From contig JAIBAC010000002.1 of the NCBI GenBank assembly GCA_019695375.1, positions 700 to 64,699 of the forward strand: DNA of 64,000 bases. Direction: 5' to 3'. Origin of the DNA: Acidimicrobiia bacterium (lineage in GTDB: Bacteria; Actinomycetota; Acidimicrobiia; UBA2766). A program made the position numbers and the translations under genes. Positions 18,881 through 37,287 of this stretch are shown here, piece after piece. How positions within the stretch are numbered: the stretch's first letter is position 1; each line of letters starts with the position of its first letter. Under the pieces are notes generated by a model that had not been told where the DNA came from, made no database searches, and saw only the letters and a program-made list of their open reading frames with translations.

Positions 18881-20627
18881 GTCGGATACCCTGGCACTCG
18901 TGCGACTCAGGATCGGCGCCGCGCAGGTGAACACCACCGTCGGCGACCTCGATGGTAACGCCGCCTTGATTGCGGAGACCGCTCGAGCGGCCGGGGCCGC
19001 GGGTTGCGACGTCGTCTGCTTCCCAGAGCTCGCGCTGACCGGCTACCCACCCGAGGACCTGCTCCACAAGCCGGCGTTCGTCGCGGACGTAGAGGCCGCT
19101 CTCGCCGACCTCGCTGCCGCCGCTCCCGACGTCGTGATGGTCGTCGGCACCGTCGTGCACCGCCGCGACCTCTACAACGCGGCCGCGGTCATCGCCGGTG
19201 GGTCGGTCGCAGGGGTCTATCGCAAGGAGCACCTTCCGAACTACGGGGTCTTCGACGAGAAGCGCTACTTCGCGTCGAGCCCCGATCCCGGACCGCTGTT
19301 CCGCCTCCGCGGCGTCACGTTCGGGATCACGATCTGTGAGGACGTCTGGATGCCGGCGGGCCCGATCCTCGCCCAGGCGCGCGCTGGGGCGCAGCTCGCG
19401 ATCAACGTCAACGCGTCGCCGTACCACATCGGCAAACACCGGCGCCGGCGCGAGATGCTCGCCACGCGTGCATCCGACGTCGGCTTGCCACTCGTGTTCG
19501 TCAACCTCGTCGGCGGTCAGGACGAGCTCGTCTTCGACGGAGGTTCGGCGCTCTTCGACGTCGACGGAGAGGTGGTCGACGAGCTGGACCGCTTCGAGAC
19601 CGCACTGGGCGTGTGGGACGTCGACTGCAGCGAGGCGTTCCGGCGCCGGCTCGTCGACACGCGGCCACGATCGTGGGGTCCGCTCGACCTGCGTGTCGTC
19701 GACCTCGACGCGGTCGTCCCCGCGAGGCCGGGACCGCCTCGAACACCTGCCGTCGTGACAGGCACTTCAGAGCTGCAGCGCTGCGACGAGGTCTACAGAG
19801 CGCTGCGCCTCGGCGTGCACGACTACCTCGACAAGAACGGGTTCCGCAGCGCCGTCGTCGGCCTCTCCGGTGGAATCGACTCGGCACTCACGACCGTGAT
19901 CGCGGTCGACGCCATCGGGGCCGGTGCGGTGACCGGCATCGCGATGCCGTCTCCGTACTCGTCGGAGCACTCGGTCGCGGATGCCCGCCTTCTGGCCGAA
20001 CGCCTCGGTATCCGCTTCGAGCTCCTGCCGATCTCCGCCGTGTTCCGCTCCTACCTGGACACGCTCGACCCGTTGTTCGCCGGGACCGAGCACGGTGTCG
20101 CCGAGGAGAACCTGCAGGCGCGGATCCGGGGCACGCTGCTCATGGCGTTCTCCAACAAGTTCGGGTCGATCCTGCTGTCGACAGGCAACAAGAGCGAGAT
20201 GGCAGTCGGGTACTCGACCCTGTACGGCGATCTCGCCGGTGGCTACGCGGTCCTCAAAGACGTTCCCAAGACCTTGGTCTACGAGCTGTCACGATGGCGC
20301 AACGAGGTCGCAGGCACGGACCTCGTTCCCGAGTCGACCATCTCGAAGCCACCGTCGGCCGAGCTGCGCCCTGACCAGCTCGACAGCGATTCGTTGCCGC
20401 CCTACGACGTGCTCGACCGTGTGATCGAGGCCTACGTCGAGCGTGACCGCTCGCCGGCCGAGATCGTCGAGTCCGGTGTCGCCGACCAAGCCCTTGTCGA
20501 CCGTGTCGTGCGCATGATCGACGCTGCCGAGTACAAGCGCCGCCAGGCCCCACCGGGGGTGCGGATCACGCCCAAGGCGTTCGGCCGCGACCGGCGCCTC
20601 CCCATCACGAACGGGAGGCACCGATGA
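18879..20627 (+). CDS. nadE: Glutamine-dependent NAD+ synthetase
   Basis: N-terminal nitrilase/CN-hydrolase domain (VCFPELALTGYPPEDL). C-terminal NAD synthetase domain (VVGLSGGIDSAL, SGNKSEMAVGYSTLYGD). Confidence 0.9.
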   Translation: MSDTLALVRLRIGAAQVNTTVGDLDGNAALIAETARAAGAAGCDVVCFPELALTGYPPEDLLHKPAFVADVEAALADLAAAAPDVVMVVGTVVHRRDLYNAAAVIAGGSVAGVYRKEHLPNYGVFDEKRYFASSPDPGPLFRLRGVTFGITICEDVWMPAGPILAQARAGAQLAINVNASPYHIGKHRRRREMLATRASDVGLPLVFVNLVGGQDELVFDGGSALFDVDGEVVDELDRFETALGVWDVDCSEAFRRRLVDTRPRSWGPLDLRVVDLDAVVPARPGPPRTPAVVTGTSELQRCDEVYRALRLGVHDYLDKNGFRSAVVGLSGGIDSALTTVIAVDAIGAGAVTGIAMPSPYSSEHSVADARLLAERLGIRFELLPISAVFRSYLDTLDPLFAGTEHGVAEENLQARIRGTLLMAFSNKFGSILLSTGNKSEMAVGYSTLYGDLAGGYAVLKDVPKTLVYELSRWRNEVAGTDLVPESTISKPPSAELRPDQLDSDSLPPYDVLDRVIEAYVERDRSPAEIVESGVADQALVDRVVRMIDAAEYKRRQAPPGVRITPKAFGRDRRLPITNGRHR

Positions 20628-20634
20628 GCCTCGC

Positions 20635-20919
20635 TCAGCCCTGGGACAGCCTCTTGGCGTAGGCACGCAGGCTGGCGACGACGTCGGGGTCGGTGCCGCA
20701 ACATCGGCCCGTGGCAAGGGACCGCTTGATCTCCTCGAGCGCACGCGACTCGTCGGAGCAGGGCTTGCACGCCTCGAGATGCGCGACGACCTTCATCGCG
20801 GTCTCCGAGTCGCACTCGCCGTCGAGATAGGCCTCGACGACCCGCGCGATCGAGCGGCACGACGGTGCGGTGTCGCCTTCGAGCCGGGTCGGGGATCGTG
20901 GCGGGCGGAACATGGTCAA
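20635..20919 (-). CDS. rsrA: Zinc-binding anti-sigma factor (ZAS family, RsrA/RshA-like)
   Basis: HLEACKPCSDE is the H-x3-C-x2-C ZAS motif, plus upstream Cys and His. Start overlaps the sigma-factor stop (ATGA). Confidence 0.8.
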   Translation of the reverse strand: MTMFRPPRSPTRLEGDTAPSCRSIARVVEAYLDGECDSETAMKVVAHLEACKPCSDESRALEEIKRSLATGRCCGTDPDVVASLRAYAKRLSQG

Positions 20920-21515
20920 TGTCGGGTCGGGATCGGGAACTGCGCGTCGCGACTGGACTCGAGCGAGCGCAGCATGCGCTTGCGCGCCCGGTGGAGCCGG
21001 CTCATCACGGTGCCGACAGGGATGTCGAGAGCGTCGGCGGCCTCCTGGTAGCTCATCCCGCCGATGTCGACGAGTCCGACGACGCTGCGGAAGTCGTCGG
21101 AGAGGTCGTCGAGAGCTGCCTCGACAGCGGCATCGAAGCCGGCAGCGTCGAGCACCTCGGCCGGATCACCCTCGGCAGCGGCGCGTGCAGACGTCGTCGA
21201 GTGGATGGTCAGGTCGTCGAGGGTCGCGTCGGGGTCACGGAGCAGGTCGGGGCGGCGCCGGCGCACCGAGTTGACGTGGGTGTTGCGCAGGATGGTGAGC
21301 AGCCACGCACGCGGATGACGCCCGTCGAAGCGGTCGAGTGCGCTGTGCGCGCGGGCGAGGGTCTCCTGGACGAGGTCTTCGGCGTCGTAGCGGTTCCGCG
21401 TGAGCGAGAGCGCCACCCGGTAGAGGACGTCGATCTCGGGGAGGACCCAGCATTCGAACGCGCGCTCCGACCGCTCGGTTGAAGGTGCGTCGACGAGTTG
21501 GTCGCAGGGTGTCAT
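20916..21515 (-). CDS. sigR: ECF sigma factor of the SigR/SigH type
   Basis: 199 aa with sigma-70 regions 2 and 4 (DAEDLVQETLARAH; YQEAADALDIPVGTVMSRLHRARKRM). Gene pair with the ZAS anti-sigma. Confidence 0.85.
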   Translation of the reverse strand: MTPCDQLVDAPSTERSERAFECWVLPEIDVLYRVALSLTRNRYDAEDLVQETLARAHSALDRFDGRHPRAWLLTILRNTHVNSVRRRRPDLLRDPDATLDDLTIHSTTSARAAAEGDPAEVLDAAGFDAAVEAALDDLSDDFRSVVGLVDIGGMSYQEAADALDIPVGTVMSRLHRARKRMLRSLESSRDAQFPIPTRH

Positions 21516-21547
21516 CCGGTCTCCGCGCAGGCTTACGCCGTTGTCAC

Positions 21548-21573
21548 AACAACCGCAGCCCGGGATGTATTCC
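21548..21573 (-). promoter_or_regulatory. SigR/SigH-type promoter GGAAT-N18-GTT upstream of sigR (autoregulatory class)
   Basis: Minus strand reads cctGGAATacatcccgggctgcggttGTTgtgac, about 30-55 bp upstream of ATG 21515. Confidence 0.6.
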
Positions 21574-21600
21574 AGGAAAGCGGGATCAGCTGGCCGTAGC

Positions 21601-23205
21601 TCAGACGCGGACGGGGGGTTCCAGCGATGGCGGTGCGCAGCGTGGTGGCTGTCCGCAGAGCGTGTGGACTGCGCGTGTGCCGTTCTCCCACACGACCACA
21701 CGCCACAGGACCGGGGTCGCGCGGCCGCACCAGTCGCATCGGCGCGCCGTCGGCGGGGGCGGGGGTGGTGGCTGTCGCGCGGCCGCCGCGGGTGGTGGGG
21801 GCGGCGGCGGCTGAGCCGAGTGCGGTGTGGGAGGCGGAGGCGGTGGCGGGGGGGACGTGCGCGGCACCGGTGGTGGTGGAACCGGGGCGGGGACCGACGA
21901 CGCGAGGCCTCCGCTCGGGGTATGCGCCGGCGGCGGCGGCGTCGAGTGCATCGGCTGTGGTGGCGGTGCGGTCCCCATCGGCGCCGGTGGCGCCGATGCG
22001 GTGGGCGGTGGCGGCGGGAACGCGGCGAGCGGTTGGTTCGGCGCCGGCAGTTCCCTCCACAGCTCGTCCTGTCGCAGCGATCGGCGGAAGTCGTACTGGC
22101 ACTTGGGGCACTTCGTGAGGACGGCCTCGTCCCTGCGGTCGCCGCACTCCGGGCAGAACGTGACGATCCGGCCTGCACCGAGCATCCCCTGGCATCGTGG
22201 GCAGACGAAGTCCGGGTCGAGCTGGGTCATGCGGAACCACGTGCCGAAGACCACGAACGGGCTCGGACCGCCGCGGCCGAAGCTCGCGCCGAGGCTCGAC
22301 GTGAGCGTGCGGAGGCGGTCGTTGCGGCGGCGGACGCGCTCGAGGTCGGGGTTCGAGACCTTCTGAAAACGGCACTCCTGGCAGGTCGTCAGGATCCGCA
22401 TGGGCAGTTCGGCGCGGATGCGAGCCTGCATGTGCAGGAACTCCACCACCTTCTGCTCGCCGGCATCGAGCTGGATGACCACGACGCCGCGTCCACCGGA
22501 CAGGGCCTGTTCCACCTTGGTTGCAAGAGCCTCGATCCGGCGCACGAGCGTTTCGGGCATGCCTTCCGGCTGTGACCCGATCAGCGCCGCGACCGTGAGG
22601 CGCGTCCGGACCTCGGCGGCGTCGAGCTGGAGCGAGCCGGCGGGTGCGTCGAACCTGAGAGCTACCACGCCTTTCCACGCCGCGGGCTGGTCGGTCTTCT
22701 TCGGCCCCCCTTCGAGGACCCGTGTCGCCTTCTGCACGGCCTTGTCACCGACGTTGCCGGCCGCGACGTTCGTGCGCTCGAGTGCGGCCACGTCGCCGGT
22801 GGCGGACCAGAACCGGGGCGGCTCGAAGGAGGCGGCGCTGTGGGGGTCGAGCCGTGCGAGGGCCTCGTCGAGTTTGGCGGCGACCTCGTCGAAGAGCGTT
22901 CGATACGGGGTGTTCGCACCCCAGATCTTCCCGAACGGGCTGCGCCAGCGGTCCTCGATGCGGACCGACAGGCCGGTCCCGGACCCGTCGCCGGACCGCA
23001 CCTGGATCGTCACCGCGAGGGGGAGCTTCGACATCACCATCGCCGACGAGGCCATCTGCGATCCGCGGGTTGCCTCGATCACGCTGGTCTGGTCGGCGGC
23101 GACCTTGAACTTGAGGCGGCGGAGCACGTTCGCGAGGTCAGCGCGCACCCGCGCCGGCGGGGCTGACACCCATCGCTGGAAGTCACACAGGATGCTGCCG
23201 CTCAT
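21601..23205 (-). CDS. Hypothetical protein with a multi-zinc-ribbon region and long poly-proline tract
   Basis: Motifs CQECRF..CPRCQ..CPECG..CPKCQ, then PPPPPTASAPP...PPPPPPPPTPHSAQPPPPPPP, then C-terminal CDWCGR...CGQPPRC. Start overlaps the upstream gene stop (ATGA 23202..23205). Confidence 0.55.
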   Translation of the reverse strand: MSGSILCDFQRWVSAPPARVRADLANVLRRLKFKVAADQTSVIEATRGSQMASSAMVMSKLPLAVTIQVRSGDGSGTGLSVRIEDRWRSPFGKIWGANTPYRTLFDEVAAKLDEALARLDPHSAASFEPPRFWSATGDVAALERTNVAAGNVGDKAVQKATRVLEGGPKKTDQPAAWKGVVALRFDAPAGSLQLDAAEVRTRLTVAALIGSQPEGMPETLVRRIEALATKVEQALSGGRGVVVIQLDAGEQKVVEFLHMQARIRAELPMRILTTCQECRFQKVSNPDLERVRRRNDRLRTLTSSLGASFGRGGPSPFVVFGTWFRMTQLDPDFVCPRCQGMLGAGRIVTFCPECGDRRDEAVLTKCPKCQYDFRRSLRQDELWRELPAPNQPLAAFPPPPPTASAPPAPMGTAPPPQPMHSTPPPPAHTPSGGLASSVPAPVPPPPVPRTSPPPPPPPPTPHSAQPPPPPPPAAAARQPPPPPPPTARRCDWCGRATPVLWRVVVWENGTRAVHTLCGQPPRCAPPSLEPPVRV

Positions 23206-24272
23206 CGAGACGTCTCTGATGCAGTGGTGTCGTCGGGCTCGCCCGGCTCACCGGGCTCCAGATCCGGATCGGCTGTTGGGGCGTCGCCTTTTACCGTCGC
23301 TGCGGTTCCGGCGACCCGGCGCCGGCGAAGCACCGCGACGGTGAGGGCGCTCACGACAGCGACGATCACGACCGCCGCGAGCACCACGATCGCGACACCG
23401 AGGACGTCGCCCCAGTCCATAGGCGGTGGAGCCTGGCGGTCCCCCTCGGGCACGGGTATCGCATCGAGGTTGCAGTCCGGGCACGGCGGCAGTGACACGG
23501 CGCGCCACGCGTCGTACTCGGCGCGCACGTCGAGGATCGGGTTCTCGCGGTTGTCACCGTTGACCTCCGACACCGCAAGCCACGGCAGCCCCGCGATGAG
23601 CGCGAGCGGGGTGTTGGACGGAGCAGCGAAAACGGGGTCCTCGGGTCGTGCTGCGACCAGGAAGGCGCTGCGCGCGGTCTGGGTGATGCCGTCCACGTTG
23701 CATCGCTTGTCCCCACCCGCCGCCGAGCCCGCCTCGAGCGCGAGCATGAGGCGATCGGTCAGGTGCAGCGGCCCACGGTCGGTGGTCTGGAACGCGTCGA
23801 ACGCGCGACCGGCCACCTCGGCGTCGCCGGCGGCGTCCACGATCACGACGGCGTTGCCTCCCGGGCCGCTGCCGTTGCGATCGCCGGACCACTCCTCCAC
23901 CTTGCTGCCCGTGAACGCACCCGAGCCGCTCGTCGTCGCGATGCCGTACTGGCGCCGTGCGCTGTCGGGCTCGAACGCGGCCCCGGTCAGAGCTGTGAGG
24001 ATCTGCACCGGTGTCCGGCCCAGCCCGACCTGCTGCACTGCGAGATCGCGTCCGCGTTCGAGGTACTCACCTTGGGCCGCGACAGCGCCGCTGCGGGGTA
24101 CGAGACCCGCCACGGCGATCAGGTCGGCGTCGACGCAGCCGGCTCCGGCGGCGCCGACGTCACCGGTGCGCGTGTCCACCGCTGCGATGGTCCACGTCGC
24201 CCCCGCGGCGGCGGCGTGCCAAAACGCGGCACCGACAGCCACGATCGTGAACAGCCGAGCCATCCTGCGCAT
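23202..24272 (-). CDS. Secreted DUF1028-like (Ntn-hydrolase-fold) protein with a C-terminal TM anchor
   Basis: Signal peptide, then TWTIAAVDTRTGDVGAAGAGC, where the N-terminal Thr after cleavage resembles the DUF1028 TFSIVA start. C-terminal hydrophobic helix. Confidence 0.45.
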   Translation of the reverse strand: MRRMARLFTIVAVGAAFWHAAAAGATWTIAAVDTRTGDVGAAGAGCVDADLIAVAGLVPRSGAVAAQGEYLERGRDLAVQQVGLGRTPVQILTALTGAAFEPDSARRQYGIATTSGSGAFTGSKVEEWSGDRNGSGPGGNAVVIVDAAGDAEVAGRAFDAFQTTDRGPLHLTDRLMLALEAGSAAGGDKRCNVDGITQTARSAFLVAARPEDPVFAAPSNTPLALIAGLPWLAVSEVNGDNRENPILDVRAEYDAWRAVSLPPCPDCNLDAIPVPEGDRQAPPPMDWGDVLGVAIVVLAAVVIVAVVSALTVAVLRRRRVAGTAATVKGDAPTADPDLEPGEPGEPDDTTASETSR

Positions 24273-24298
24273 CGACGGAGACTACGCCGGGCCGCGCC

Positions 24299-25006
24299 AT
24301 GTGGATCAAGGATCGCGAGCGGATGTCCGACAAGACAGCGATGGCTGTCATACCCCGGGACGTGCTGGCCCAGCTGTGCGCACCCCACCTGGATCGGGGT
24401 GAGGGCGTGCGCGGGTGCGTGGAGGCCACCGTCGTCGACGTGAACGGGCGCGTCGACGCAGCTGGCGACATCGGCCGCGTGGTCGTCGTGCTCACCGAGA
24501 GACGGCTCGTCACCCTGGTCTGGCGTGCGAGTGCCGACCCTGAACCTGACGGTGCCGTGCCGCTGGAGATGCTCGGCCATGCTCACGTCGAAGACTCGCC
24601 GATCGGGGTGACGCTCACGATCGGCCTGTCGACCGGCCCTGTGGTGCGTTTCGCGATCGGCCCCGCGCACGTAGGTGAGGCAAGGGCGCTCGCGGCCGCC
24701 ATCTCGCGGGACAGCGGCGTGACGGAGGAGATCCCCGTCGTCGGCGCGGTCGCTCCGAAGCTCTCCCCTGAGGAGGCGGCGTCGCGGCTGGCCCTCGCGG
24801 CGGAGCTCGCCCGCCTCTGCGAACGCGATGACGACCGCATCCTCGAGCTCGTGCCCGGCGTCGTCGTGACCCGCAGCGACGACTCGGCGTCGACCTACTT
24901 CGTGCACGTCGCTCCGCCGCCGCTGATCCAGGGAGCGTGCCCACGCTGCCAGCACCCCACCCGCGACGGGGCGGTCTTCTGCGACGCCTGCGGCGCACTT
25001 CTGTGA
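24299..25006 (+). CDS. Hypothetical protein with C-terminal zinc ribbon (CPRC...CDAC)
   Basis: ORF with plausible composition. Start uncertain (24299, 24323 or 24341). Confidence 0.45.
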   Translation: MWIKDRERMSDKTAMAVIPRDVLAQLCAPHLDRGEGVRGCVEATVVDVNGRVDAAGDIGRVVVVLTERRLVTLVWRASADPEPDGAVPLEMLGHAHVEDSPIGVTLTIGLSTGPVVRFAIGPAHVGEARALAAAISRDSGVTEEIPVVGAVAPKLSPEEAASRLALAAELARLCERDDDRILELVPGVVVTRSDDSASTYFVHVAPPPLIQGACPRCQHPTRDGAVFCDACGALL

Positions 25007-25348
25007 CGCCGCTCGCGGTGGTGCGCGACCGGTCCCGGTAGGGCCGGTCGCTTCGCGGCAGGTCGACCGCGACCCGACGCGGCAGCCCGAGCAGCCACGG
25101 TGGCTTCTGGTACCACTAGCGCATTCCGCGCCGCGAGGATAGATTCGCTCCGTTTCGGGCTCTGCGCCCCTCTGGACGCAGCACCGCTCGGGAGTCGGCT
25201 GGGGAGGGTCCGCGAGGACCCGAAGGAGAGCATGGGCACCCGGGGTCCGGCAGGTCGGTGTCGTGGGGGCGCCGCCCACGGACCCCGTGGTCCCGGCACC
25301 AGCCGCCGCTGGTCGTTGGCGGCGCCCGGGTTCTCTAACCTCGGCCCG

Positions 25349-26515
25349 ATGTCGACGGCTTCCCCAGCACCTGTCCCCGACCTCTCGCTGGCTGTGGCTC
25401 GGGAGTGGTTCCCGGTGTTCAACCGCTGGGCGTACCTCGACTTCGCCGGGGTTGCCCCCATCCCGCAGATCGCCGTGGATGCGGCGACGCTCGCACTCGA
25501 GGCGCAGGCGCTCGACGCGATCGTGAGCGTCGACGACACCGAGGCCGCGATCGAGGAGCTGCGCGAGGACGTGGCGCGGTTCGTGGGCGCCACTGCCGAG
25601 GAGATCGCGTTCGTGCGCAACACGACCGAGGGGCTCGGGTGGGTCGCGAACGGACTCGGCCTCGGCGCGGGGGACCGGGTGGTGGTCGCCGGTGACGACT
25701 TCCCGAGCGCGGTGCTGCCCTGGACCAACCTCGCCGCCCGCGGCGTCGACGTCGACGTCGTGGCCCGCCGCGGGCCCGGTGTCGTCCTCGACGACCTCGT
25801 CGCGGCCGTCGGCGGCGGGAAGCCACCGGCGCTCGTCGCGCTCACGTGGGTCCACTACGCGACCGGATGGCGGACCGACCTCGGCGAGATCGTGCGTGCA
25901 TGTCACGAGCGTGGTTCGCTCGTGTGCGCAGATGTGATCCAGGGCGTCGGTGTCATGCCCCTCGACCTCCACGCCACGGGTGTCGATTTCGCCGCGGCCG
26001 ACGGTCACAAGTGGCTCTGCAGCGTCGAGGGCCAGGGCTTCCTCTACGTCAGGCACTCGGTGCTCGACCGGCTGCAGGTGCTCGAGCCGGGCTGGAACTC
26101 GGTCGTCCAGCGTGGTCAGTGGGAGGACCTCGCGTGGACGCCCGACCCCGGGGCGCGTCGCCTCGAGGGCGGTACACCCACCCGTGTGGCACTCGCGGCG
26201 CTGCTCGCGTCGCTGCACCTCCTCGCCAGCACCGGCAGTGAGCGCATCTGGGATCGCGTCCGCGACCTGACGAACCGGGTGGTGGCCGGCGTTCACGATG
26301 CAGGCATGAACCTGTTGACGGCGCGCGACCCCGCGCACGCTTCGGGCATCGTGACGTTCAGCCATCCGCGGATGCGCGCCGAGGACCTCGGTGCCCTGCT
26401 CCGCAGCCGCGGTGTCGTGGTAGCGGCTCCGCGCGGAGGTGGGGTGAGGGTGAGCCCCCATTTCGTGTGCAACGAGGACGACGTCGACGCGTTGCTCGAG
26501 GCGTTGCCGCGATGA
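25349..26515 (+). CDS. Class-V aminotransferase-fold PLP enzyme (cysteine desulfurase/SufS-like)
   Basis: DGHKWLCSVEGQGFLYV carries the PLP lysine in the HK motif. Start at MSTASPAPV (ATG 25349). Confidence 0.8.
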   Translation: MSTASPAPVPDLSLAVAREWFPVFNRWAYLDFAGVAPIPQIAVDAATLALEAQALDAIVSVDDTEAAIEELREDVARFVGATAEEIAFVRNTTEGLGWVANGLGLGAGDRVVVAGDDFPSAVLPWTNLAARGVDVDVVARRGPGVVLDDLVAAVGGGKPPALVALTWVHYATGWRTDLGEIVRACHERGSLVCADVIQGVGVMPLDLHATGVDFAAADGHKWLCSVEGQGFLYVRHSVLDRLQVLEPGWNSVVQRGQWEDLAWTPDPGARRLEGGTPTRVALAALLASLHLLASTGSERIWDRVRDLTNRVVAGVHDAGMNLLTARDPAHASGIVTFSHPRMRAEDLGALLRSRGVVVAAPRGGGVRVSPHFVCNEDDVDALLEALPR

Positions 26516-28179
26516 GCGGAGAGCTCGCGCCGCAGCGCCCGCCGCCGCCGTGGTGGGGGCGCTCCCACGGTACCGACTGGCTCTTCGTCCCGGGCAGTGC
26601 CGGAGCCGAGGGGCTCCTGACGCTCCCCGAGATCGATCTGCTGCACGAGGGTCAGCGTGCGATGGTGCGCTTCGTCGGCGACGACTCGCCCCTCGTCGCC
26701 GTGCACGGTGCCGGTGCTGCGGTGACGACGCGCAGCGAGCAGCGTGGGCTCACGATCGAGGGTGCCATGGTGCACCTCGATCTGCGCTGGGGCGGCGTAC
26801 TGCGCCAGCGGCACTCGAGCAGGCCGCTGCCCGTCTCCCTCGGGGTGCGTTGGGATCCGTGGGCGTACGCGCTTGTCTTCGAGCCACTCGGGCAGGTACC
26901 GCTGGGCGCCTTCGCCGTCGTTCCGCACGCAGGGGTCAACCGGATCCACGTCGAGGGCATCGACTGGGACCCCGAGCGTGAGTCACGTCATCCTCCCCAG
27001 GACCGCCTCCGGGCGATGCTCGATCTGCCGGGACCCGTCCACGTCGCGGTCGGCATCGACGGCGACACCGCCGTCGGCGCTGCTCATGCGCTGCGCCGCG
27101 CGGTCGGACGCCCGGCCGAGCGCGGAGTGTTCGTACCCGAGGGCGTCAGTGCGCGAACCGTCGAGAACCTCCGGTTCTGCCGCATCGGTGCGCTGGGCCG
27201 TGCCATCGACACGGGCGAGTGGGTCCCCGTGACGTCACGCTCGCCCCGCTACGACCTCCCAGCGACGTTCCGTGCACGCGACTGGTTCCGGTGGGCGCTG
27301 CCTGCGGTCACGGCGTGTGACCCCGACGCCGCGCGTGACGGGCTCATCGCGGCGTGCCGGCTTGCCGGCGCTGCGCCGGGGATGCACGCCCTCGATCCTG
27401 CAGGCGCGCCGCACTTCGGCGGCTTCCAGCTCGATGCTGCTTGTGACGTTGCGCTCGGAGTCGGTGAGTACGTGCGCTCGACCGGGGACCACGGCGTCGT
27501 GTCCGAGCCGGAGGTCGACGATGCGTTGCGCGCTGTGGCTGAGGAGCTGCCGCGCTGGCACGACCGTGCCTTCGGCCTGTTCCGCACCGAGCTCGCACCA
27601 TCGGGCGACGCTGCACCGGGTCCGTTCCTGGCGGTGCCGAACGCGATGGCGATAGCCGCTTACGAGGTGCTCGGGAAGCTGAAGGTGATCGAGCACTCGA
27701 GCGCGGTACCAAAGCTCGCCAGCCTGTGGCGACAGGCGTTCGTGCAGGACGGCTGGATCGTGGGCGCCCTCGGTGCCGAAGGTCAGCCCTTCAACTGGGA
27801 CGACGCCACCGCCTCCGTCGCGATGCTGGGACGCCTCGGTGTGCTCGAACGCCGGGACGAAGACGCATGGAGCCGGACAGTCACCCACCTCATGTCGGCG
27901 CGGAACCCGAACCACGTGCCAGGGCGCTACCCGGGCGAACGCGCCGTTTGGATGCCCGGGCCGTGCCTGGAGGCGCTGGCCGAACGGATGCTCGCGTTCC
28001 CGAGCGGACGCGACGTCAGCGACGAGGGTCGCATGATCGCCGAGCACGCCCCGTTCGACGCGGACGGCATGGCGTGTGAGACCTATGACGCCGATACCGG
28101 GGTGGCGCTGTCGGGGGTCGGTTGGGCAGCGGGCTCGGGCCTGCTCGCCGCCGCATTGATGACGGCCGCGGGTCTGTGA
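26512..28179 (+). CDS. Conserved hypothetical protein, 555 aa, no recognisable catalytic motif
   Basis: Start ATG overlaps the upstream stop (ATGA at 26512..26515). Protein-like composition over the full length. Confidence 0.65.
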   Translation: MSGELAPQRPPPPWWGRSHGTDWLFVPGSAGAEGLLTLPEIDLLHEGQRAMVRFVGDDSPLVAVHGAGAAVTTRSEQRGLTIEGAMVHLDLRWGGVLRQRHSSRPLPVSLGVRWDPWAYALVFEPLGQVPLGAFAVVPHAGVNRIHVEGIDWDPERESRHPPQDRLRAMLDLPGPVHVAVGIDGDTAVGAAHALRRAVGRPAERGVFVPEGVSARTVENLRFCRIGALGRAIDTGEWVPVTSRSPRYDLPATFRARDWFRWALPAVTACDPDAARDGLIAACRLAGAAPGMHALDPAGAPHFGGFQLDAACDVALGVGEYVRSTGDHGVVSEPEVDDALRAVAEELPRWHDRAFGLFRTELAPSGDAAPGPFLAVPNAMAIAAYEVLGKLKVIEHSSAVPKLASLWRQAFVQDGWIVGALGAEGQPFNWDDATASVAMLGRLGVLERRDEDAWSRTVTHLMSARNPNHVPGRYPGERAVWMPGPCLEALAERMLAFPSGRDVSDEGRMIAEHAPFDADGMACETYDADTGVALSGVGWAAGSGLLAAALMTAAGL

Positions 28180-29216
28180 CGCCCGTGGCCTCCGGCACGC
28201 CCACCCTCGGCGAGATCGCGATGCGATTCCTCGCGTTCGCCGACGCCGAGTGCGGGTCGTACGCGCCTACCTACGACCGGCTGTCGCGGGCGATCGCCGC
28301 CGACCCCGGGGCGGCCGCGTGTGTGTCGGCGGTGCGTCGCGGCCAGCAGCAGCCCAACGTGTTCTTCGGCGCCGCCCACCTGCACCTCGGCAGCGCCATC
28401 CGCGAGATCGACGACGCCGCATTCCTCGAGTGGTGCCACGCGAACCAGAACGTCCTCGCTCACGAGTGCGCAACGCGCCTCGTTCAGACGAACGAGGCAC
28501 GCCGCTCGTCGTTCCTGCTCCCTGCGCTGGCCCTCGTCGCGTCGGCGAGCCCCTCGCGTCCGCTCGCGCTCGTCGAGGTCGGCGCGTCAGCCGGCCTGCT
28601 CCTCGCGTTCGACAGGTACCGCTACGAGTACCGCTTCACGCCCGATGCCACGGTTGCAGCCACGGCCGGCGACCCGAACGCCCCCGTGCTCGTCGCCTGC
28701 GACCTGCGGAGCTCGCGGATACCACCCGTGGCCATCGACTCGGTCCCGCTCGTGGACCGGGTCGGGATCGATCTCGACCCGGTCCTGCCCACCGACACCG
28801 GTGCCGTCGAGTGGCTGCGAGCGCTGGTGTGGCCGGATCATCCGGACCGCCGTGCGCGCCTCGACGCCGCCCTCGCCCTCGTGGCTGCCGATCCTGTCCC
28901 ACTCGTGCGCGGAGATGCTCTGGAGGTGCTCGCCGCGGTGGTCGGCCGTCTCGGCGCCGGTGTCACACCGGTGGTGTTCCACACCGCCACCTTGATCCAC
29001 TTCGACGAGCGCGCAGGGCGCCGCTTCCGCGATCTCGTGCCGCGCATCGCGGCATCGCGCGGCGGTGACCTCGTCTGGGTCTTCGCGGAGTCGAGATCGA
29101 GCGTCGGGTGGAACGTCGAGGTCGTGGACTTCCGGGTGCCGGAACCCACACCCGTGCGGATCGCCGAGGTCAACGCGCATGGCACGTGGTTGCGCTGGAC
29201 GGTGAAGGAGAGATGA
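28176..29216 (+). CDS. DUF2332-family protein
   Basis: N-terminus MRFLAFADAECGSYAPTYDRLSRAIAADP resembles DUF2332. GTG 28176 overlaps the upstream TGA (GTGA). The alternative start is ATG 28221. Confidence 0.55.
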   Translation: MTPVASGTPTLGEIAMRFLAFADAECGSYAPTYDRLSRAIAADPGAAACVSAVRRGQQQPNVFFGAAHLHLGSAIREIDDAAFLEWCHANQNVLAHECATRLVQTNEARRSSFLLPALALVASASPSRPLALVEVGASAGLLLAFDRYRYEYRFTPDATVAATAGDPNAPVLVACDLRSSRIPPVAIDSVPLVDRVGIDLDPVLPTDTGAVEWLRALVWPDHPDRRARLDAALALVAADPVPLVRGDALEVLAAVVGRLGAGVTPVVFHTATLIHFDERAGRRFRDLVPRIAASRGGDLVWVFAESRSSVGWNVEVVDFRVPEPTPVRIAEVNAHGTWLRWTVKER

Positions 29217-29935
29217 CGATGGGATCCGAAGCCGCGCTCGAACCTGTTCCCGAGGACTGGAGCCGGGCACTCTGCGTCGTCGCCCACCCCGACGACCTCG
29301 AGTACGGAGCGGCGGCCGTCGTCGCCCGCTGGACACGTCAGGGAAAGGACGTCGGCTACGTGCTCGCGACCCGGGGTGAAGCGGGGATCGACGGGCTCCC
29401 CCCTGCCGAGACGGGGCCGTTGAGGGAGGCGGAGGAGCTGGCATCGGCCGCCGTCGTGGGGGTGGACGACGTCGTGTTCCTCGACCACGTCGACGGCCTC
29501 GTGGTCGACGGGCTCGACCTGAGGCGCGACATCGCCGAGCAGATCCGCCGCTTCCGCCCCGACGTGGTCGTCACGATGAACTTCGACCTGACCTGGGGAG
29601 GGGTCGCGGTCAACCACGCCGACCACCGCAACGTCGGTCTCGCGACCCTCGATGCGGTACGCCACGCCGCGAACCGCTGGCTCGACCCCGGTCTCGGTGA
29701 ACCGTGGGGTGGAGTCCGTTTCGCCCTCGTGGCAGGCGCGTCCACCGCGAGTCACTACGTCGACGTGTCCGCGACGCTCGAGTCCGGCATCGAGTCACTT
29801 CGCCTGCACCGTGCGTACATCGACGGGCTCGGCTCCGGCTTCGACCCAGACGACTTCCTCCGGTCCAACGCGAAGCGCCAGGGCGAGATGGCCGGCATCG
29901 ATCACGCCGTCACGTTCAGGCTGTACGAGGCGTAG
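29213..29935 (+). CDS. PIG-L/LmbE-family N-acetylglucosaminyl deacetylase-like protein
   Basis: VVAHPDDLEYGAA is the AHPDDE zinc-site motif. Start overlaps the upstream stop (ATGA 29213..29216). Confidence 0.85.
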   Translation: MTMGSEAALEPVPEDWSRALCVVAHPDDLEYGAAAVVARWTRQGKDVGYVLATRGEAGIDGLPPAETGPLREAEELASAAVVGVDDVVFLDHVDGLVVDGLDLRRDIAEQIRRFRPDVVVTMNFDLTWGGVAVNHADHRNVGLATLDAVRHAANRWLDPGLGEPWGGVRFALVAGASTASHYVDVSATLESGIESLRLHRAYIDGLGSGFDPDDFLRSNAKRQGEMAGIDHAVTFRLYEA

Positions 29936-29996
29936 TGACCACGCGCCGGGGAGAGCGTTCCGGAGGGGGCCGCCCCCACCATCGGGCGCCTTGCCT

Positions 29997-30467
29997 CTAG
30001 TAGATGCCGCCGAGCTTGCGGTGGTCCCAGCTCATCACGCGCACGGGGACGACCTTGAGCACCGCTCGCTTCGCTGCACGCTGGCGCACCGCGTCCTGGG
30101 CGTCGGGGCCGAGGACGCGCACATCGACTCCCTCGTAGCGGGCGGTCATGTCGAACATGACCTCGGCCGCGAGGTCGGGATCGTCGATGATCGCGGCATC
30201 ACCCTGGATCATCACGCCGCGCAGCTCCGCATATGCATTCCCGTCCTCGAGCAGCACGCTGATCTTGGGGTTGCGCCGCGCGTTGAGGATCTTCTGTGAC
30301 TTCGCGTAGGTCGCGAAGTGGATCGTGCCGTCGAGGAGGCCGTACCACATCGCGGTCGTGTGCGGGTAGCCGTCGCTGCCGATCGTGGTCAGGCTCGCGT
30401 TGTGGGCGGCGGCGAGGAACTCCGCACGCTCGGTTTCGCTCATCTGGATCAGGTCTCGACGGCTCAT
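29997..30467 (-). CDS. PPOX-class (pyridoxamine 5'-phosphate oxidase-like) probable F420-dependent enzyme
   Basis: MSRRDLIQMSETERAEFLAAAHNASLTTIGSDGYPHTTAMWY matches the split-barrel PPOX family. Confidence 0.7.
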   Translation of the reverse strand: MSRRDLIQMSETERAEFLAAAHNASLTTIGSDGYPHTTAMWYGLLDGTIHFATYAKSQKILNARRNPKISVLLEDGNAYAELRGVMIQGDAAIIDDPDLAAEVMFDMTARYEGVDVRVLGPDAQDAVRQRAAKRAVLKVVPVRVMSWDHRKLGGIY

Positions 30468-30603
30468 GGCGACCGAGGGTACCGGTGCCGGCCGCGCAAG
30501 CGTCGCGGGCATCCGAGAAGGGACGCGGTCGGGCGCCATCGAACTAACGGACAACCACGTCCCGATCCCGCTGCTCGCGGGGCCTCCGATTTCGGGAGGA
30601 CCG

Positions 30604-31596
30604 ATGTCCGGACTCGCAGTGATCGCCTCGAGGCCGTCGCCCGATGACCCGCTAGCCGCGCTCGAGATCGTCGATGCGCCCGAAGTGAAGCCCCTCGACG
30701 GCGACACCGTCGTGCCTGTGGTCGCTGCCGCCTTGAACCACCACGACCTGTGGGCGCTGCGCGGCGTCGGCGCCGCGCTCGAATCGTTCCCGTGCGTGCT
30801 CGGCAACGACGGCGCCGGCGACGGCTACGTCCTGTATCCGGTGATCGGATGCGACGACACGGAGAACTGCTACGGATGTCGTGTCGGCGACCAGTCGCTG
30901 TGCCGCCGGTTGACGGTGATCGGCGAGGGCCGGCCCGGCACGATGGCGCCCGCCGTCGCCCTTCCAGCGGCCAACGTCGTGCCCAGCCCCGTGAGCCTCA
31001 CCCCTGCGGAGGCCGCGTGCCTCCCCGCCGCGTACATGACGGCCTTCAACATGCTGTTCCGCGCATCTCAGCCCGAGCCCGGTGACACGGTCATGGTCAC
31101 GGGCGCGACCGGTGGCCTCGGCGTCGCGGCCCTGCAGCTCGGCGCCGCCGCCGGCTTCAGGATGGTCGCGCAGGTGCGCCGCCCTGAGGTCGCGTCCCAG
31201 CTCGAAGAGCTCGGCGCGGATGTCGTGATCAGCACCGAGGACAACCCCAAGCGCGTCATCGGCGGCGAGGTCGACGTCGTGATCGAGAGCGTGGGCGAGG
31301 CGACCTGGTCGACGAGCCTGCGCTCGTTGCGCTCGGGCGGCACCGTGGTTGTGGCCGGCGCGACCTCGGGTGCCAACCCACCCGCCGACCTCCAGCGTGT
31401 GTTCTGGCGTCAGATCCGCATCGCCGGCGCCTCGCTCGGATCCCTCGACGACTTCGAGGCGCTCGTCAAGTTCGTCGACGACCGCGGTGTCAAGCCCCAC
31501 ATCGCCGCCCGGTACCACGTGACCGAGGCGCACGCCGCCTTCGAGCACCTCTACAGAGGCGGCCCGATCGGCAAGATCGTGCTCGAGCTGACCTGA
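30604..31596 (+). CDS. Zinc-binding alcohol dehydrogenase/quinone oxidoreductase (MDR family)
   Basis: VTGATGGLGVAALQLGAAAGFRMVA is the Rossmann motif. About 330 aa. Confidence 0.85.
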   Translation: MSGLAVIASRPSPDDPLAALEIVDAPEVKPLDGDTVVPVVAAALNHHDLWALRGVGAALESFPCVLGNDGAGDGYVLYPVIGCDDTENCYGCRVGDQSLCRRLTVIGEGRPGTMAPAVALPAANVVPSPVSLTPAEAACLPAAYMTAFNMLFRASQPEPGDTVMVTGATGGLGVAALQLGAAAGFRMVAQVRRPEVASQLEELGADVVISTEDNPKRVIGGEVDVVIESVGEATWSTSLRSLRSGGTVVVAGATSGANPPADLQRVFWRQIRIAGASLGSLDDFEALVKFVDDRGVKPHIAARYHVTEAHAAFEHLYRGGPIGKIVLELT

Positions 31597-31649
31597 CGTC
31601 GAGGTCGGTGTCATCAGGATCGAGTGACCGGCGCGCGTAGGCTCCTGGC

Positions 31650-33116
31650 GTGGTCCGAGCGTGCCGAGGTCTCATCGCATCTGTGGCCACAGCAGCCATC
31701 GCGCTTGTTGCCGCCTGCAGCCCGCCCGGCGAGCAGGCCGGCCACGGCGTCGGCCACGTCGACGACGGCGTTATGCGCATCGGGGTCGTCGGCGCCTTCA
31801 GCGGCGACCTGTCCTATGTGGGCAAAGGCGTCGAGGGCGGCGTTCGCTATGCCGTCGACGAGCGCAACGACGGTGGCGGCTTCGGTGGCCGTGACGTGGA
31901 GATCGTCACGTGCGACGGCAAGTTCCAGCCGTCCACCGAACGCGACTGCCTGACCAAGCTCGTGAGCGAGGACGCGGTGGACGCGATCGTCCTCGACGAC
32001 CCTCAGCTCCCGGCGCTCGACGCACGGTTCGTGGCGAACCTCGACGTGCCTGTGATGCTGCCGGTGATCCCACCACCCACGATGGACGCCACGACGCTGC
32101 CGAACGCGTTCGCGTATCCGCCGCGTTCGGACTCGCCCGAGGTGCTCGCCGCGTGGCTCGCGCAGAAGTACCCGGGTGCCGCGGTCGGGCTGGTCGCAGC
32201 AGACGACTCGATCACCGACATCGGACTCGCAGACGTCGAGGTCGCGCTCGAGGGTGCAGGCCTCCGCGTGGTCGCCAAGGAGCGGTTCTCCGCCGGTGAC
32301 GCAGACATGACACCGCAGGTCCGCGCGCTGCAGTCCGCCGGCGCGGTCGTGATGGTGCCCCTCGCTCTCGGTGCCGACGCCGCCCACGCAGTGCAGGCCG
32401 CCGACCGCATCGGCTACCACCCGCAGGTTGCCGGCACCGAGACCCTGTACATGAGCGCCTATCGCGAGATCGCCGGTCCGCTCAGCAACGACACCGTTCT
32501 GACGCTGCCTCACGGGGCCGACCAGGTGGGCGTCTCCGTCGAGCTCCTCCAGTGGCTCTTCGACTACTTCCGCCGTTACGGAGTGCGCGTGCTGCAGGTG
32601 AACGGCTCGTTCTCGCCCGATTACCCAGGCCTCGAGCTCCTGTCGTACGAGATGACCGACGCCGTGCTCGAGGCCGCGCACGACGCCGACACCACCGAAC
32701 CCGACGCCGTGGTGCGCGAGCTGCAGCGCCCGAGTGGGTTCGCCGGGGTGGGCCGCCGGTTGAAGGTCGATCCCGCCACCAACGAGTTCGCGGTGACACC
32801 GCCGTTCCAGACCTGGATAGCACGGTTCAAGAACGGCCACGTCCTCTACGACTGGGATCCGCGCGCGGCGCCCGCGATCGAGGACGCGCGTTACGCCGTC
32901 GAGGACTGGTTCCTGACCGACGGCAAGGTGCCCGAGCTGAACGCGCAGACCGTGGTCGACCTCGCGCAGCGCTGGGTCGACGAGCTGACCGCACGCCAGA
33001 CGGATGCGGTCGCACAGATGGGCCAGGCCGCCTACGACGACCTCCTGTCCCGCTCGCAGCAGGGTCTCGAACTGGCCCGGCTCCTCGTCAAGCAGCAATC
33101 ATCCGGGTCGAACTAG
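31650..33116 (+). CDS. ABC-transporter substrate-binding lipoprotein (branched-chain amino acid/LivK-like)
   Basis: GTG start. Lipobox LVAACS. Periplasmic-binding-protein type-I composition. Confidence 0.75.
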   Translation: MVRACRGLIASVATAAIALVAACSPPGEQAGHGVGHVDDGVMRIGVVGAFSGDLSYVGKGVEGGVRYAVDERNDGGGFGGRDVEIVTCDGKFQPSTERDCLTKLVSEDAVDAIVLDDPQLPALDARFVANLDVPVMLPVIPPPTMDATTLPNAFAYPPRSDSPEVLAAWLAQKYPGAAVGLVAADDSITDIGLADVEVALEGAGLRVVAKERFSAGDADMTPQVRALQSAGAVVMVPLALGADAAHAVQAADRIGYHPQVAGTETLYMSAYREIAGPLSNDTVLTLPHGADQVGVSVELLQWLFDYFRRYGVRVLQVNGSFSPDYPGLELLSYEMTDAVLEAAHDADTTEPDAVVRELQRPSGFAGVGRRLKVDPATNEFAVTPPFQTWIARFKNGHVLYDWDPRAAPAIEDARYAVEDWFLTDGKVPELNAQTVVDLAQRWVDELTARQTDAVAQMGQAAYDDLLSRSQQGLELARLLVKQQSSGSN

Positions 33117-33146
33117 GCGTACACACCAGCGAGACCTGGGGATCAG

Positions 33147-34316
33147 TTGGACTTCGACCTACCGCCGGAAGCCGAGGAATACCGCGACGCCGTGCGGGCA
33201 TGGATCGCAGATCACCCCAAGCCGTCGGCGCGTGAGCTCGCCGAGGCAGGTTACGTGGCGCCGCACTGGCCCAAGCCGTACGGGCTCGACGCCGACCCGA
33301 TCCAGCAGATCGTGGTCGACGCGGAGCTCAAGGCGGCGGGGATCTCGCGGCCGGGGAACATCATCGGTATCGGCTGGGCGGGCCCGACGTTGATCTACGC
33401 CGGCACCGAGGAGCAGAAGCAGCGGTACCTGCCGGGCATCCTCTCGGGCGACGAGGTCTGGTGCCAGCTCTTCAGCGAACCCGGTGCCGGCAGCGACCTC
33501 GCAGACCTGTCGACGCGGGCCGTGCGCGACGGTGACGAGTGGGTCGTCACGGGCCAGAAGATCTGGACGTCGCTCGCGCAGCACTCCAAGTTCGGCATCC
33601 TCCTCGCGCGCACCGATCCGAACGCCACCAAGCAGGAGGGCATCTCCTACTTCGTGTGCCCGATGGACTCACCCGGCATCGAGATCCGCCCGATCATCGA
33701 GATGACCGGCGTGCACACCTTCAACGAGGTGTTCCTCGACGAGGTGCGCATCCCGGCGGCGAACCTCGTGGGCGAGGTCAACAGGGGGTGGAAGCTCGCC
33801 AAGGTCACCCTCGGCAACGAGCGTGTGTCGCTGTCGGGCGAGGGTGCGCTCTGGGGCGCGGGGCCGACGGCGGCCGACCTCGTGTCGCTGGTGCGCCAGG
33901 GGGGCGGCTGCGCCGACCCGCACCTGCGCCAGCAGCTCGCGTCGGTGTTTGCCGAGGGCGAGGTGCTGCGCCTGATCAGGCTGCGGACCGTGAGCGCTGC
34001 GATCGCTGGGCGTGAGCCCGGACCAGAGGCATCGATCCGCAAGGCCCTCGCCGACGAGCACGGCCAGCACGTCATGGGCGTCGCCAAGGCACTCGCCGGG
34101 GCGCGGGGAATGCTGAGCGGAACCGGGTCCTACGGGGGTCCCGAGGCGCTCGTAGCCAACGAGATCTGGAACCACGGCTTCCTCTTCGCGCCCGCGCTCA
34201 CGATCGGTGGGGGTACGTCGGAGGTGCAGCGCAACATAATCGGCGAGCGCGTCCTCGACCTCCCCCGCGAGCCCGATCCCACCGCCACCAAGGGATGGGC
34301 CGAGCTCCACGCGTGA
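33147..34316 (+). CDS. Acyl-CoA dehydrogenase family protein
   Basis: MDFDLPPEAEEYRDAVRAWI... GQKIWTSLAQHS ... NIIGERVL. TTG start as given by the ORF track. Confidence 0.85.
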   Translation: MDFDLPPEAEEYRDAVRAWIADHPKPSARELAEAGYVAPHWPKPYGLDADPIQQIVVDAELKAAGISRPGNIIGIGWAGPTLIYAGTEEQKQRYLPGILSGDEVWCQLFSEPGAGSDLADLSTRAVRDGDEWVVTGQKIWTSLAQHSKFGILLARTDPNATKQEGISYFVCPMDSPGIEIRPIIEMTGVHTFNEVFLDEVRIPAANLVGEVNRGWKLAKVTLGNERVSLSGEGALWGAGPTAADLVSLVRQGGGCADPHLRQQLASVFAEGEVLRLIRLRTVSAAIAGREPGPEASIRKALADEHGQHVMGVAKALAGARGMLSGTGSYGGPEALVANEIWNHGFLFAPALTIGGGTSEVQRNIIGERVLDLPREPDPTATKGWAELHA

Positions 34317-34383
34317 CCCCCAACCGCCCCAAACGCGGGTGGTTTGACGTGGTGGCGGGATGGGTTGCCCGCGTTTGGGGGGC

Positions 34384-36363: not shown

Positions 36364-36459
36364 GGATTCCTCCCCGCTCCGCGGCATCGACCCGCGGCCG
36401 TCCCCCAAGGTCGTCCTCAGGTTTGCGTTCGACGCGGCTGGGCGCGCATCCTGGCCGGC

Positions 36460-37287
36460 ATGATCACCCGGCTCCACCACGTCGCCGCCGTCGTCCCGAC
36501 CCTCGAGGACGGGGTGTCCGTGTGGCGTGACATCTTCGGCCTTCACGTCGAGTGCGAGGCGACGGTACCCGAACAAGGCGTGCGCGCGTGTCTGCTGCCC
36601 TGCGGTGACGGCGAGATCGAGCTGCTGCAGCCGCTCGATCCCGACGGCGCGATCGCAGGCTTCGCCGCCCGCGGCGGCGGTGTGCACCACGTCTGCTTCG
36701 AGTCCGACGACGTCGCCGCCGAGCTGAGCCGCATGGCTGCGGCGGGGGTGCGCCTCATCGACGAGGTGCCGCGGCCGGGCCTCGCAGGCCGCATCGGCTT
36801 CGTGCACCCGAAGGCGACGCTCGGCTCCCTCGTCGAGATCGCGACGCCCGGCGCGGGTGTCGCGGTCGAGGCCTACGCCGTGCCCGAACCGGCCGCGCCG
36901 GCACCGGTCCCTGTGCGCCGCTACAGCCACCTCACCTACTGCGTCGAGAACTTCGACGCGGCCGCCGAGCTCTTCGACGCGAACTTCGGACTCGAGGCTG
37001 CGCTCAACCCGCACGAGGTCGAGTACCTCGGGGGTGAGGCGCTGCGCGTCCCGCTCGCGAACGCAGCCGTCGAGCTGGCGCGCCCGATGGACGCCGGCGG
37101 TTGGCTCGACCGGCGCCTGTCCCAGCGCGGCGAGGGCGCCGCGGTGCTGCACCTCGAGCTCGGCGCCGCGACCGTCCCGGAAGAGGCCGAGCTGCGCGGG
37201 CTCGGTTTCGACGTCGAGGATCTCGGCGACGGGACCACGATGCTCTCTGGTGAGCGCACCGGCGGCATGTGCATCGCCCTGTCGTGA
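36460..37287 (+). CDS. Tandem VOC/glyoxalase-fold protein (methylmalonyl-CoA epimerase-like)
   Basis: MITRLHHVAAVVPTLEDGVSVWRDIFGL... second VOC unit YSHLTYCVENFDAAAELF. Confidence 0.7.
   Translation: MITRLHHVAAVVPTLEDGVSVWRDIFGLHVECEATVPEQGVRACLLPCGDGEIELLQPLDPDGAIAGFAARGGGVHHVCFESDDVAAELSRMAAAGVRLIDEVPRPGLAGRIGFVHPKATLGSLVEIATPGAGVAVEAYAVPEPAAPAPVPVRRYSHLTYCVENFDAAAELFDANFGLEAALNPHEVEYLGGEALRVPLANAAVELARPMDAGGWLDRRLSQRGEGAAVLHLELGAATVPEEAELRGLGFDVEDLGDGTTMLSGERTGGMCIALS

Follow-up and report, generated by a model that had tools for sequence, protein, structure and literature searches.

The exo-alpha-1,6-mannosidases of glycoside hydrolase family 125 (GH125), represented by CpGH125 and SpGH125 (PDB 3qt3, 3qt9, 3qpf and 6rqk), are built on an (alpha/alpha)6 barrel. 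In CpGH125, Asp220 serves as the general acid and Glu393 as the base, with Trp62, Arg64 and Asp65 in the -1 subsite, and in the distantly related endo-mannosidase MmpH the general acid has been proposed to come from a different loop (PMC9883506). The bacterial GH15 glucoamylases and glucodextranases (PDB 1lf6, 1ug9 and 9ju0) place a beta-sandwich ahead of an (alpha/alpha)6 barrel. Among the class-V pyridoxal 5'-phosphate (PLP) enzymes, SufS/CsdB of E. coli (PDB 1i29, 1jf9) carries a persulfide-forming Cys364 and a catalytic His123, and C-DES (PDB 1elq) is without a catalytic Cys. The PIG-L/LmbE superfamily, with its AHPDD metal-binding motif, includes MshB and Mca of mycothiol metabolism and BshB of bacillithiol metabolism, as well as LnmX (PDB 5bmo), the PIG-L family protein of the leinamycin cluster. 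To our knowledge no function has been assigned to LnmX, and a literature search returned only unrelated uses of that string. Here we describe a locus in which relatives of these proteins are encoded by consecutive genes. It lies in a 64,000-nucleotide (nt) stretch of an Acidimicrobiia bacterium (contig JAIBAC010000002.1, positions 700 to 64,699, assembly GCA_019695375.1), referred to throughout as the window. The genes, all on the plus strand, are A (25349..26515; class-V-fold PLP enzyme, 388 amino acids), B (26512..28179; two-domain GH125-like protein, 555 amino acids), C (28176..29216; DUF2332 protein and accessory operon member, 346 amino acids) and D (29213..29935; PIG-L/LmbE (CE14) protein and dispensable operon member, 240 amino acids). 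Comparison with related loci shows, at the level of sequence and gene order, an operon confined to a narrow group of uncultured Acidimicrobiia, put together step by step, in which A and B form the persistent unit.

The relatives of the window are all uncultured Acidimicrobiia, and their loci can be ordered by how much of the unit they carry. B stands alone, beside a divergent GH127-like gene, in L001-3 and L009 (B 46% identical to that of the window). A-B is found in L004 (= L010), L008 and L005/6 (49% in L004 and L008, 71% in L005/6), the state of L008 being taken from tblastn matches only. A-B-C is found in L105, L007 and L018 (88%, 86% and 86%), the L018 contig stopping right after C, where the status of D is not readable, and A-B-C-D in the window and L013/14 (81%). 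C follows B only in the window, L105, L007, L013 and L018, that is, where B is at least 81% identical, and D is present in L013/L014 and absent from L105 and L007, the two closest relatives. Between the window and L013 the identities are 70% for A, 81% for B, 66% for C and 73.5% for D; because the value for D is in line with those for the other three, D was probably inherited vertically and then lost in L105 and L007. Of the four proteins, B shows the strongest conservation (81-88% versus 66-75% identity). The A/B overlap, of the form [A/G/T]TGA, is kept in all six lineages with a readable junction, with ATG, GTG or TTG as the start codon. The convergent PNPOx-like gene that comes next after D in the window directly succeeds B or C in L005, L105 and L007, so that C and D occupy an insertion slot. 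C and D were added downstream of A-B in one subclade, together with a conserved, structured-looking leader described below, and some members probably lost D later. In L007 the place of D holds two tandem copies (10690-10830) of a ~70-bp palindromic element (GAACGCGGGTG...GGCCCGCGTTTGGGGGTGGGGTC), which looks like a repetitive extragenic palindromic (REP) or miniature inverted-repeat transposable element (MITE)-like repeat marking the loss of D. A preliminary description of the window had taken the four genes to be one stoichiometrically expressed pathway. That reading finds only partial support: outside the closest relatives nothing but A-B persists, C is limited in distribution and D is missing from the two nearest. 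The same description had named a lack of co-localisation in other genomes as evidence that would speak against it; our neighbourhood comparison upholds co-localisation for A-B and finds it wanting for C and D, which is largely that outcome.

The four genes meet at three 4-nt stop/start overlaps, each in the right frame: ATGA at 26512-26515 (A/B), GTGA at 28176-28179 (B/C) and ATGA at 29213-29216 (C/D), as previously described. All four frames are coding by codon-position GC, and the genes are arranged as in a translationally coupled operon, being co-directional, with overlapping or abutting stops and starts and without an internal terminator. The unit is compact, with a conserved leader of its own at the upstream end and the convergent gene at the other. 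In the 61-nt gap between D and the PNPOx-like gene we read a GC hairpin, GGGGG-CCG-CCCCC (29965..29977), as a putative terminator at the 3' boundary; it is without a T-run and was not flagged by a terminator scan. At the other end, position 25006, previously given as the beginning of the operon, falls on the last base of the stop codon with which an upstream zinc-ribbon gene (24299-25006) ends. The start of A is most likely ATG 25349, because the codon-position GC of 25232-25348 is 0.72/0.85/0.77, which is non-coding-like, versus 0.73/0.49/0.90 farther downstream, because ATG 25232 of the window reads GAG in two relatives (L007 and L018), and because conservation among A orthologues begins only at 'SNL..[M/V][S/T]T'. 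ATG 25232, which would give a protein of 427 amino acids, was rejected on these grounds despite its strong Shine-Dalgarno sequence. The start of D may be ATG 29219, two nt past the C stop (238 amino acids), which has the better Shine-Dalgarno spacing; the relative L013 has a 3-nt gap at the C/D junction. We note that at least six other same-strand junctions in the window have a 4-nt overlap by the same criterion, and that such overlaps lie just upstream of the operon in a sigma/anti-sigma pair and in a pair encoding a 534-amino-acid protein and a DUF1028 protein. The A-D overlaps point to an operon and are unremarkable on their own, 4-nt overlaps being routine in a window of ~71% GC. In a high-GC genome, a common pathway cannot be concluded from three 4-nt overlaps in a row.

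B is rare. Seven homologues were found among 5.8 billion proteins, and the gene is present in 4 of 185,579 species-representative genomes, all of them Acidimicrobiia metagenome-assembled genomes. Single-sequence searches with B returned no match in Pfam (E<=0.01), in NCBIfam or, by phmmer, in the PDB, in agreement with its earlier labelling as a 555-amino-acid unknown protein; the class-V, DUF2332 and PIG-L/LmbE labels given to A, C and D are likewise right by family scans. A profile of the B clade reached 259 representatives in a search of 1.84 billion proteins. Among the aligned relatives, 65 of 70 match PF06824 (GH125); B itself falls below that model, which only the more distant relatives reach. 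With the B family profile, GH125 structures in the PDB are matched at up to 1e-30. The depth of the alignment is reflected in structure prediction by AlphaFold2, which gave a predicted local distance difference test score (pLDDT) of 49 with the 7-sequence alignment and of 94.3 with the 70-sequence alignment (predicted template modelling score 0.93). The latter model has an N-terminal beta-sandwich (residues ~17-181) and an (alpha/alpha)6 barrel (~184-552). A Foldseek search with this model matched GH15, GH63 and GH125 structures. The two-domain GH15 enzymes rank first (2e-12 to 2e-11), with the same succession of beta-sandwich and barrel; they differ from B in that identity is 11-13% and sequence-family membership is not detectable. 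The best matches for the barrel are of GH125 (6rqk, 3qt9 and 3qpf; E ~1e-10, target-normalised TM score 0.63-0.66), whose homology to B can be traced via intermediate relatives and whose Arg64/Asp65 equivalents, along with several motif residues, are kept in B. B differs from the GH125 enzymes in its extra N-terminal beta-sandwich, in being cytoplasmic and in its coupling to a PLP enzyme. The possibility, raised in the preliminary description, that the 555-amino-acid frame is a fusion artefact can be set aside: the protein is 555-556 amino acids long in every lineage found, a single two-domain model is predicted at pLDDT 94, and relatives of ~600 amino acids have both domains.

The active site of B has been remodelled. 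In a HMMER alignment, Asp220 of CpGH125 is the first D of the PSDD motif, and the residues Asp220, Glu393, Trp62, Arg64 and Asp65 map to Gly365, Glu523, Arg254, Arg256 and Asp257 of B. The general-acid position is an invariant Gly in 7 of 7 clade members and Asp in 58 of 67 relatives. The equivalent of Trp62 is Arg254 in the B clade (Met in one member), with Arg256 and Asp257 kept. The equivalent of the base Glu393 is Glu523 in the window and in three other clade members, while P0003-P0005 have Thr, Ala or Val there. Two further positions, the FELD-motif Glu and the GxGxxH-motif His, also vary within the clade. At 95 positions conserved in 58 catalytically intact relatives, the B clade has the same residue in 49 cases, a different but again invariant residue in 9 and variable residues in 37. 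Our reading of this pattern is that the classical inverting-glycosidase mechanism has been lost and a selected function retained. That function is probably still carbohydrate-related, since many of the invariant residues of B are Trp or Arg and carbohydrate-type genes stand beside it in three lineages (GH127 in L001, an SGL lactonase-like gene in L004, and PIG-L in the window and L013). If B is non-hydrolytic, it would be a natural example of a repurposed glycoside-hydrolase scaffold, with acid, stacking Trp and base lost, held under strong selection beside a PLP enzyme.

Other relatives of B offer some observations on gene pairing. A smaller set of them is also without the acid Asp, and the two for which contigs were fetched (P0146 at L011 1-2152, and P0083 at L012 1321-4587) are encoded on short contigs, each directly after a DUF1015 gene. 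Here an acid-less barrel may have been joined to a partner protein a second time, independently; a PLP enzyme was considered as the partner of these relatives, and DUF1015 was found instead. In L024 (5935-10280), the gene for the catalytically intact P0007 (759 amino acids) overlaps a 689-amino-acid CN_hydrolase-domain gene by 4 nt and is followed by a transaldolase-like gene.

The partner of B in the window, A, is a cytoplasmic protein that matches PF00266 (Aminotran_5) at 3.8e-50 and falls far under the cut-off of every NCBIfam equivalog, for example 142.9 versus 475.1 bits for sufS (TIGR01979) and 104.9 versus 661 bits for NF006791. An alignment of A to E. coli SufS (1e-31) spans residues 66-398 and brings the PLP Lys and the cofactor-site Asp/Gln into register; the Lys lies in DGHKW, opposite SGHK-L of SufS, and is conserved across all orthologues. 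On the SufS side the alignment ends at residue 359/360, just before Cys364. The C-terminal remainder of A is 28 residues versus 46 in SufS, 18 shorter, and is without a conserved Cys: A continues as AAPRGGGVRV, and its sole downstream Cys is not conserved (HAWN in L004). Phe/Pro occupy the positions of SufS His123/His124. A C-terminal Arg, of the kind that holds the alpha-carboxylate, is kept, and we presume it to be the counterpart of SufS Arg379. Judged from these residues, A is a class-V enzyme acting on an amino-acid-like substrate, because the PLP Lys and the C-terminal Arg are kept, and is not a persulfide-forming cysteine desulfurase, because the Cys364 loop and His123 are missing. The earlier characterisation of A as SufS-like is correct at the level of the fold and fails at the Cys loop and His123. 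Nearer functional analogies are Cys-less C-S lyases such as C-DES (match at 3e-20, aligned through the C-terminus), kynureninase and PvdN. Should B prove to be non-hydrolytic, the case would call for caution in labelling such proteins "alpha-mannosidase" or "cysteine desulfurase", and it would offer a way to approach what a large orphan class-V PLP branch in Actinomycetota does.

Taken together, the data suggested to us that B is no longer a classical inverting alpha-mannosidase and may have become a protein that binds a sugar or glycoconjugate, or processes it non-hydrolytically. Its ligand would be a small cytoplasmic glycosylated metabolite, held in a pocket rich in Trp and Arg. A would carry out PLP chemistry on the amino-acid moiety of the same or a derived compound, by beta-elimination (as a C-S or C-O lyase) or transamination. 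Where present, D would strip an N-acetyl or acyl group from the amino-sugar part, and C would have some tailoring role. We hold this package of sugar recognition or non-hydrolytic processing by B, PLP chemistry by A and optional deacetylation by D only tentatively, giving it somewhat less than an even chance, and place much lower confidence in any specific substrate. A more elaborate version would make A-B a two-component PLP system in which a glycosylated amino acid or thiol, for instance an O- or S-glycosyl Ser/Cys-type metabolite, is recognised through its sugar by the disabled barrel and the Cys-less A frees that sugar by beta-elimination and not by hydrolysis, under the control of an undescribed ligand-sensing leader RNA; we consider this improbable. 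Several observations weigh against the package. Over 300 close members of the A family are known from Amycolatopsis, Nocardia and other Actinomycetota, as a rule as stand-alone genes, and in the B-alone lineage the best A homologue (53% identical) is on another contig than B. Relatives of B pair with quite other neighbours, DUF1015 and CN_hydrolase. The lineages with A-B also share their flanks, namely the sigma/anti-sigma pair, PNPOx, an alcohol dehydrogenase, a binding protein and an acyl-CoA dehydrogenase, and because these genes are shared on both sides, the A-B adjacency could reflect inherited synteny and not functional linkage. Finally, B of the window itself has the base Glu; with this residue kept and the acid of MmpH coming from another loop, residual or relocated hydrolytic activity of B is conceivable.

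In the strongest form of this last objection, B would still be an active glycoside hydrolase, its acid recruited elsewhere or its substrate bearing a good leaving group, and the operon would be an ordinary unit for the catabolism of a glycan or glycoconjugate. Such a reading could draw on the retained Glu523, Arg256, Asp257, Asp308, Asn377, Asp430 and Asp516 of the window protein, on the precedent of the MmpH acid in a different loop (PMC9883506) and on the carbohydrate-type neighbours of B in several lineages. However, the equivalent of the base is Thr, Ala or Val in 3 of 7 clade members, the Glu306, His480 and Trp254 positions vary within the clade, and the acid position is invariantly Gly; the overall pattern looks like relaxation of the old site, not relocation of one residue. 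We therefore regard a hydrolytic B as unlikely.

The objection from synteny leads to a broader alternative, in which A-D are unrelated genes, packed and co-transcribed in a compact high-GC genome, with C and D inserted in the only free spot before the convergent gene. Much is consistent with such an incidental operon: 4-nt overlaps are common across the window, D was lost while A-B-C stayed, A homologues are stand-alone, and conserved synteny of the whole region makes adjacency little informative. DUF2332 also appears to have no conserved partner. We surveyed 80 other (metagenomic) DUF2332 loci, 506 kb in total, and found no homologue of A, B or D within 5 kb in any of them; the 114 open reading frames flanking DUF2332 in these loci belong to 97 Pfam families, none of which recurs more than three times. 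We also rejected the notion of C-D as a self-standing pair of genes occurring elsewhere. On the other hand, the A/B overlap persists down to 46-49% protein identity through changes of start codon, the C-carrying lineages, and exactly these, have a dedicated conserved leader ahead of the unit, and B stands repeatedly beside carbohydrate-type genes. An incidental operon is in our judgement less likely than not, and it is the alternative that we take most seriously against the package of sugar recognition and PLP chemistry.

The two accessory genes differ in how much can be said of them. C matches PF10094 (DUF2332) over profile positions 3-334 of 334 (8.7e-75; 252.7 bits versus a cut-off of 25). 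A 54-sequence profile search found no relative of C in the PDB, and a literature search found no paper that mentions DUF2332. A motif in C, LVEVGASAG, resembles methyltransferase motif I; in hhalign comparisons with two methyltransferases, LALVEVGASAGL pairs with motif I of one, at a probability (0.2%) that is not significant. The search for remote homology and structure proposed in the preliminary description was thus productive for B (GH125-like, pLDDT 94.3) and came back empty for DUF2332. D matches PF02585 (PIG-L; 1.1e-27, 97.5 bits versus 28.2) and has intact motifs, VVAHPDDLE (AHPDD) and NHADH (HADH/HxDH), as expected for a putative Zn-dependent de-N-acetylase or amidase of the LnmX type. 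LnmX is the closest solved relative (5e-54 over ~200 residues); it differs in that the context of a leinamycin polyketide cluster is absent around D and in that D is dispensable in its own clade. D shares its superfamily and metal-binding motif with MshB, Mca and BshB and is an orthologue of none of them, its scores being far below the curated cut-offs (MshB 33.2 versus 224 bits, Mca 38.5 versus 277, BshB1 59 versus 182 and BshB2 42.9 versus 195).

These scores bear on the idea, raised in the preliminary description, of a thiol-cofactor route related to mycothiol-type chemistry. Spelled out in full, such a route would handle thiol cofactors or S-conjugates as in mycothiol, bacillithiol or lincomycin metabolism, and SigR would control its three components: a PLP C-S lyase, an amidase of the LmbE kind and a protein resembling methyltransferases. 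The proposal is understandable, as D is an LmbE/PIG-L protein in which the metal-binding and catalytic motifs are intact, A is similar to Cys-less C-S lyases, C-DES among them (1elq, 3e-20), C has the LVEVGASAG motif, and a SigR-type sigma/anti-sigma pair lies 4 kb away. That pair, placed ~4 kb upstream in the preliminary description, was confirmed as an extracytoplasmic function (ECF) sigma gene (20916-21560, minus strand) and a zf-HC2 (RsrA-like) anti-sigma gene (20635-20919, minus strand) with a 4-nt overlap. The sole strict match to GGAAT-N17-19-GTT in the window is directly upstream of the sigma gene (GGAAT-N18-GTT at 21548-21573); as we estimate about one match per window by chance, it is the position that is informative. 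An equivalent GGAAT motif precedes the sigma gene in L013, L007, L004 and L008, and we predict the window's copy to be a SigR-type autoregulatory promoter. Upstream of A, however, no SigR-type motif was found in any of the seven loci checked (the window and six related ones), which argues against control of the operon by SigR. Furthermore, D is dispensable as well as far under the MshB, Mca and BshB cut-offs, the methyltransferase likeness of C is not significant, the A-B core predates C and D, and nothing in B relates to thiol chemistry. Positive evidence for thiol-cofactor chemistry was not found, and we consider a thiol route highly improbable.

The leader that precedes A in the window (25140..25348, plus strand) is a conserved, promoter-proximal region of ~200 nt, recognised from a four-lineage alignment and RNAalifold; the other copies are at L007 6646-6841, L013 4985-5162 and L018 3418-3635. 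It begins with a -10-like TAGATT at 25140-25145 (TAGnTT across lineages), contains the invariant blocks CGCTCCGTTTCG and GGAGTCGGCTGGGG, and has CTAACCT directly before the start codon. In the alignment, invariant blocks of 12-14 nt stand inside otherwise diverged DNA. The predicted fold includes a GNRA-capped hairpin, GGTCC-GCGA-GGACC, and a long third hairpin; RNAalifold proposes 42 pairs, 4 of them with compensatory changes. When ~620 kb of related and unrelated loci were searched with a covariance model, the leader turned up nowhere except ahead of A in C-carrying lineages; within the window the motif blocks are unique. A scan of window positions 19000-36000 against Rfam at E<=1 gave no match. 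With four sequences to draw on, we put the leader forward as a candidate new cis-regulatory RNA.

Two further regions of the window may be mentioned. At 21601-24272 (minus strand), just upstream of the zinc-ribbon gene, the gene for the 534-amino-acid protein, which has no Pfam match, overlaps the DUF1028 gene by 4 nt, and the pair is conserved at 71-82% identity in L105, L007, L013 and L018. At 34384-37152 (minus strand) there is a large open reading frame (at least 922 amino acids) that has no Pfam match at E<=0.01 and is backed by codon-position GC; an overlapping frame on the plus strand has a glyoxalase-domain match at its C-terminal end.

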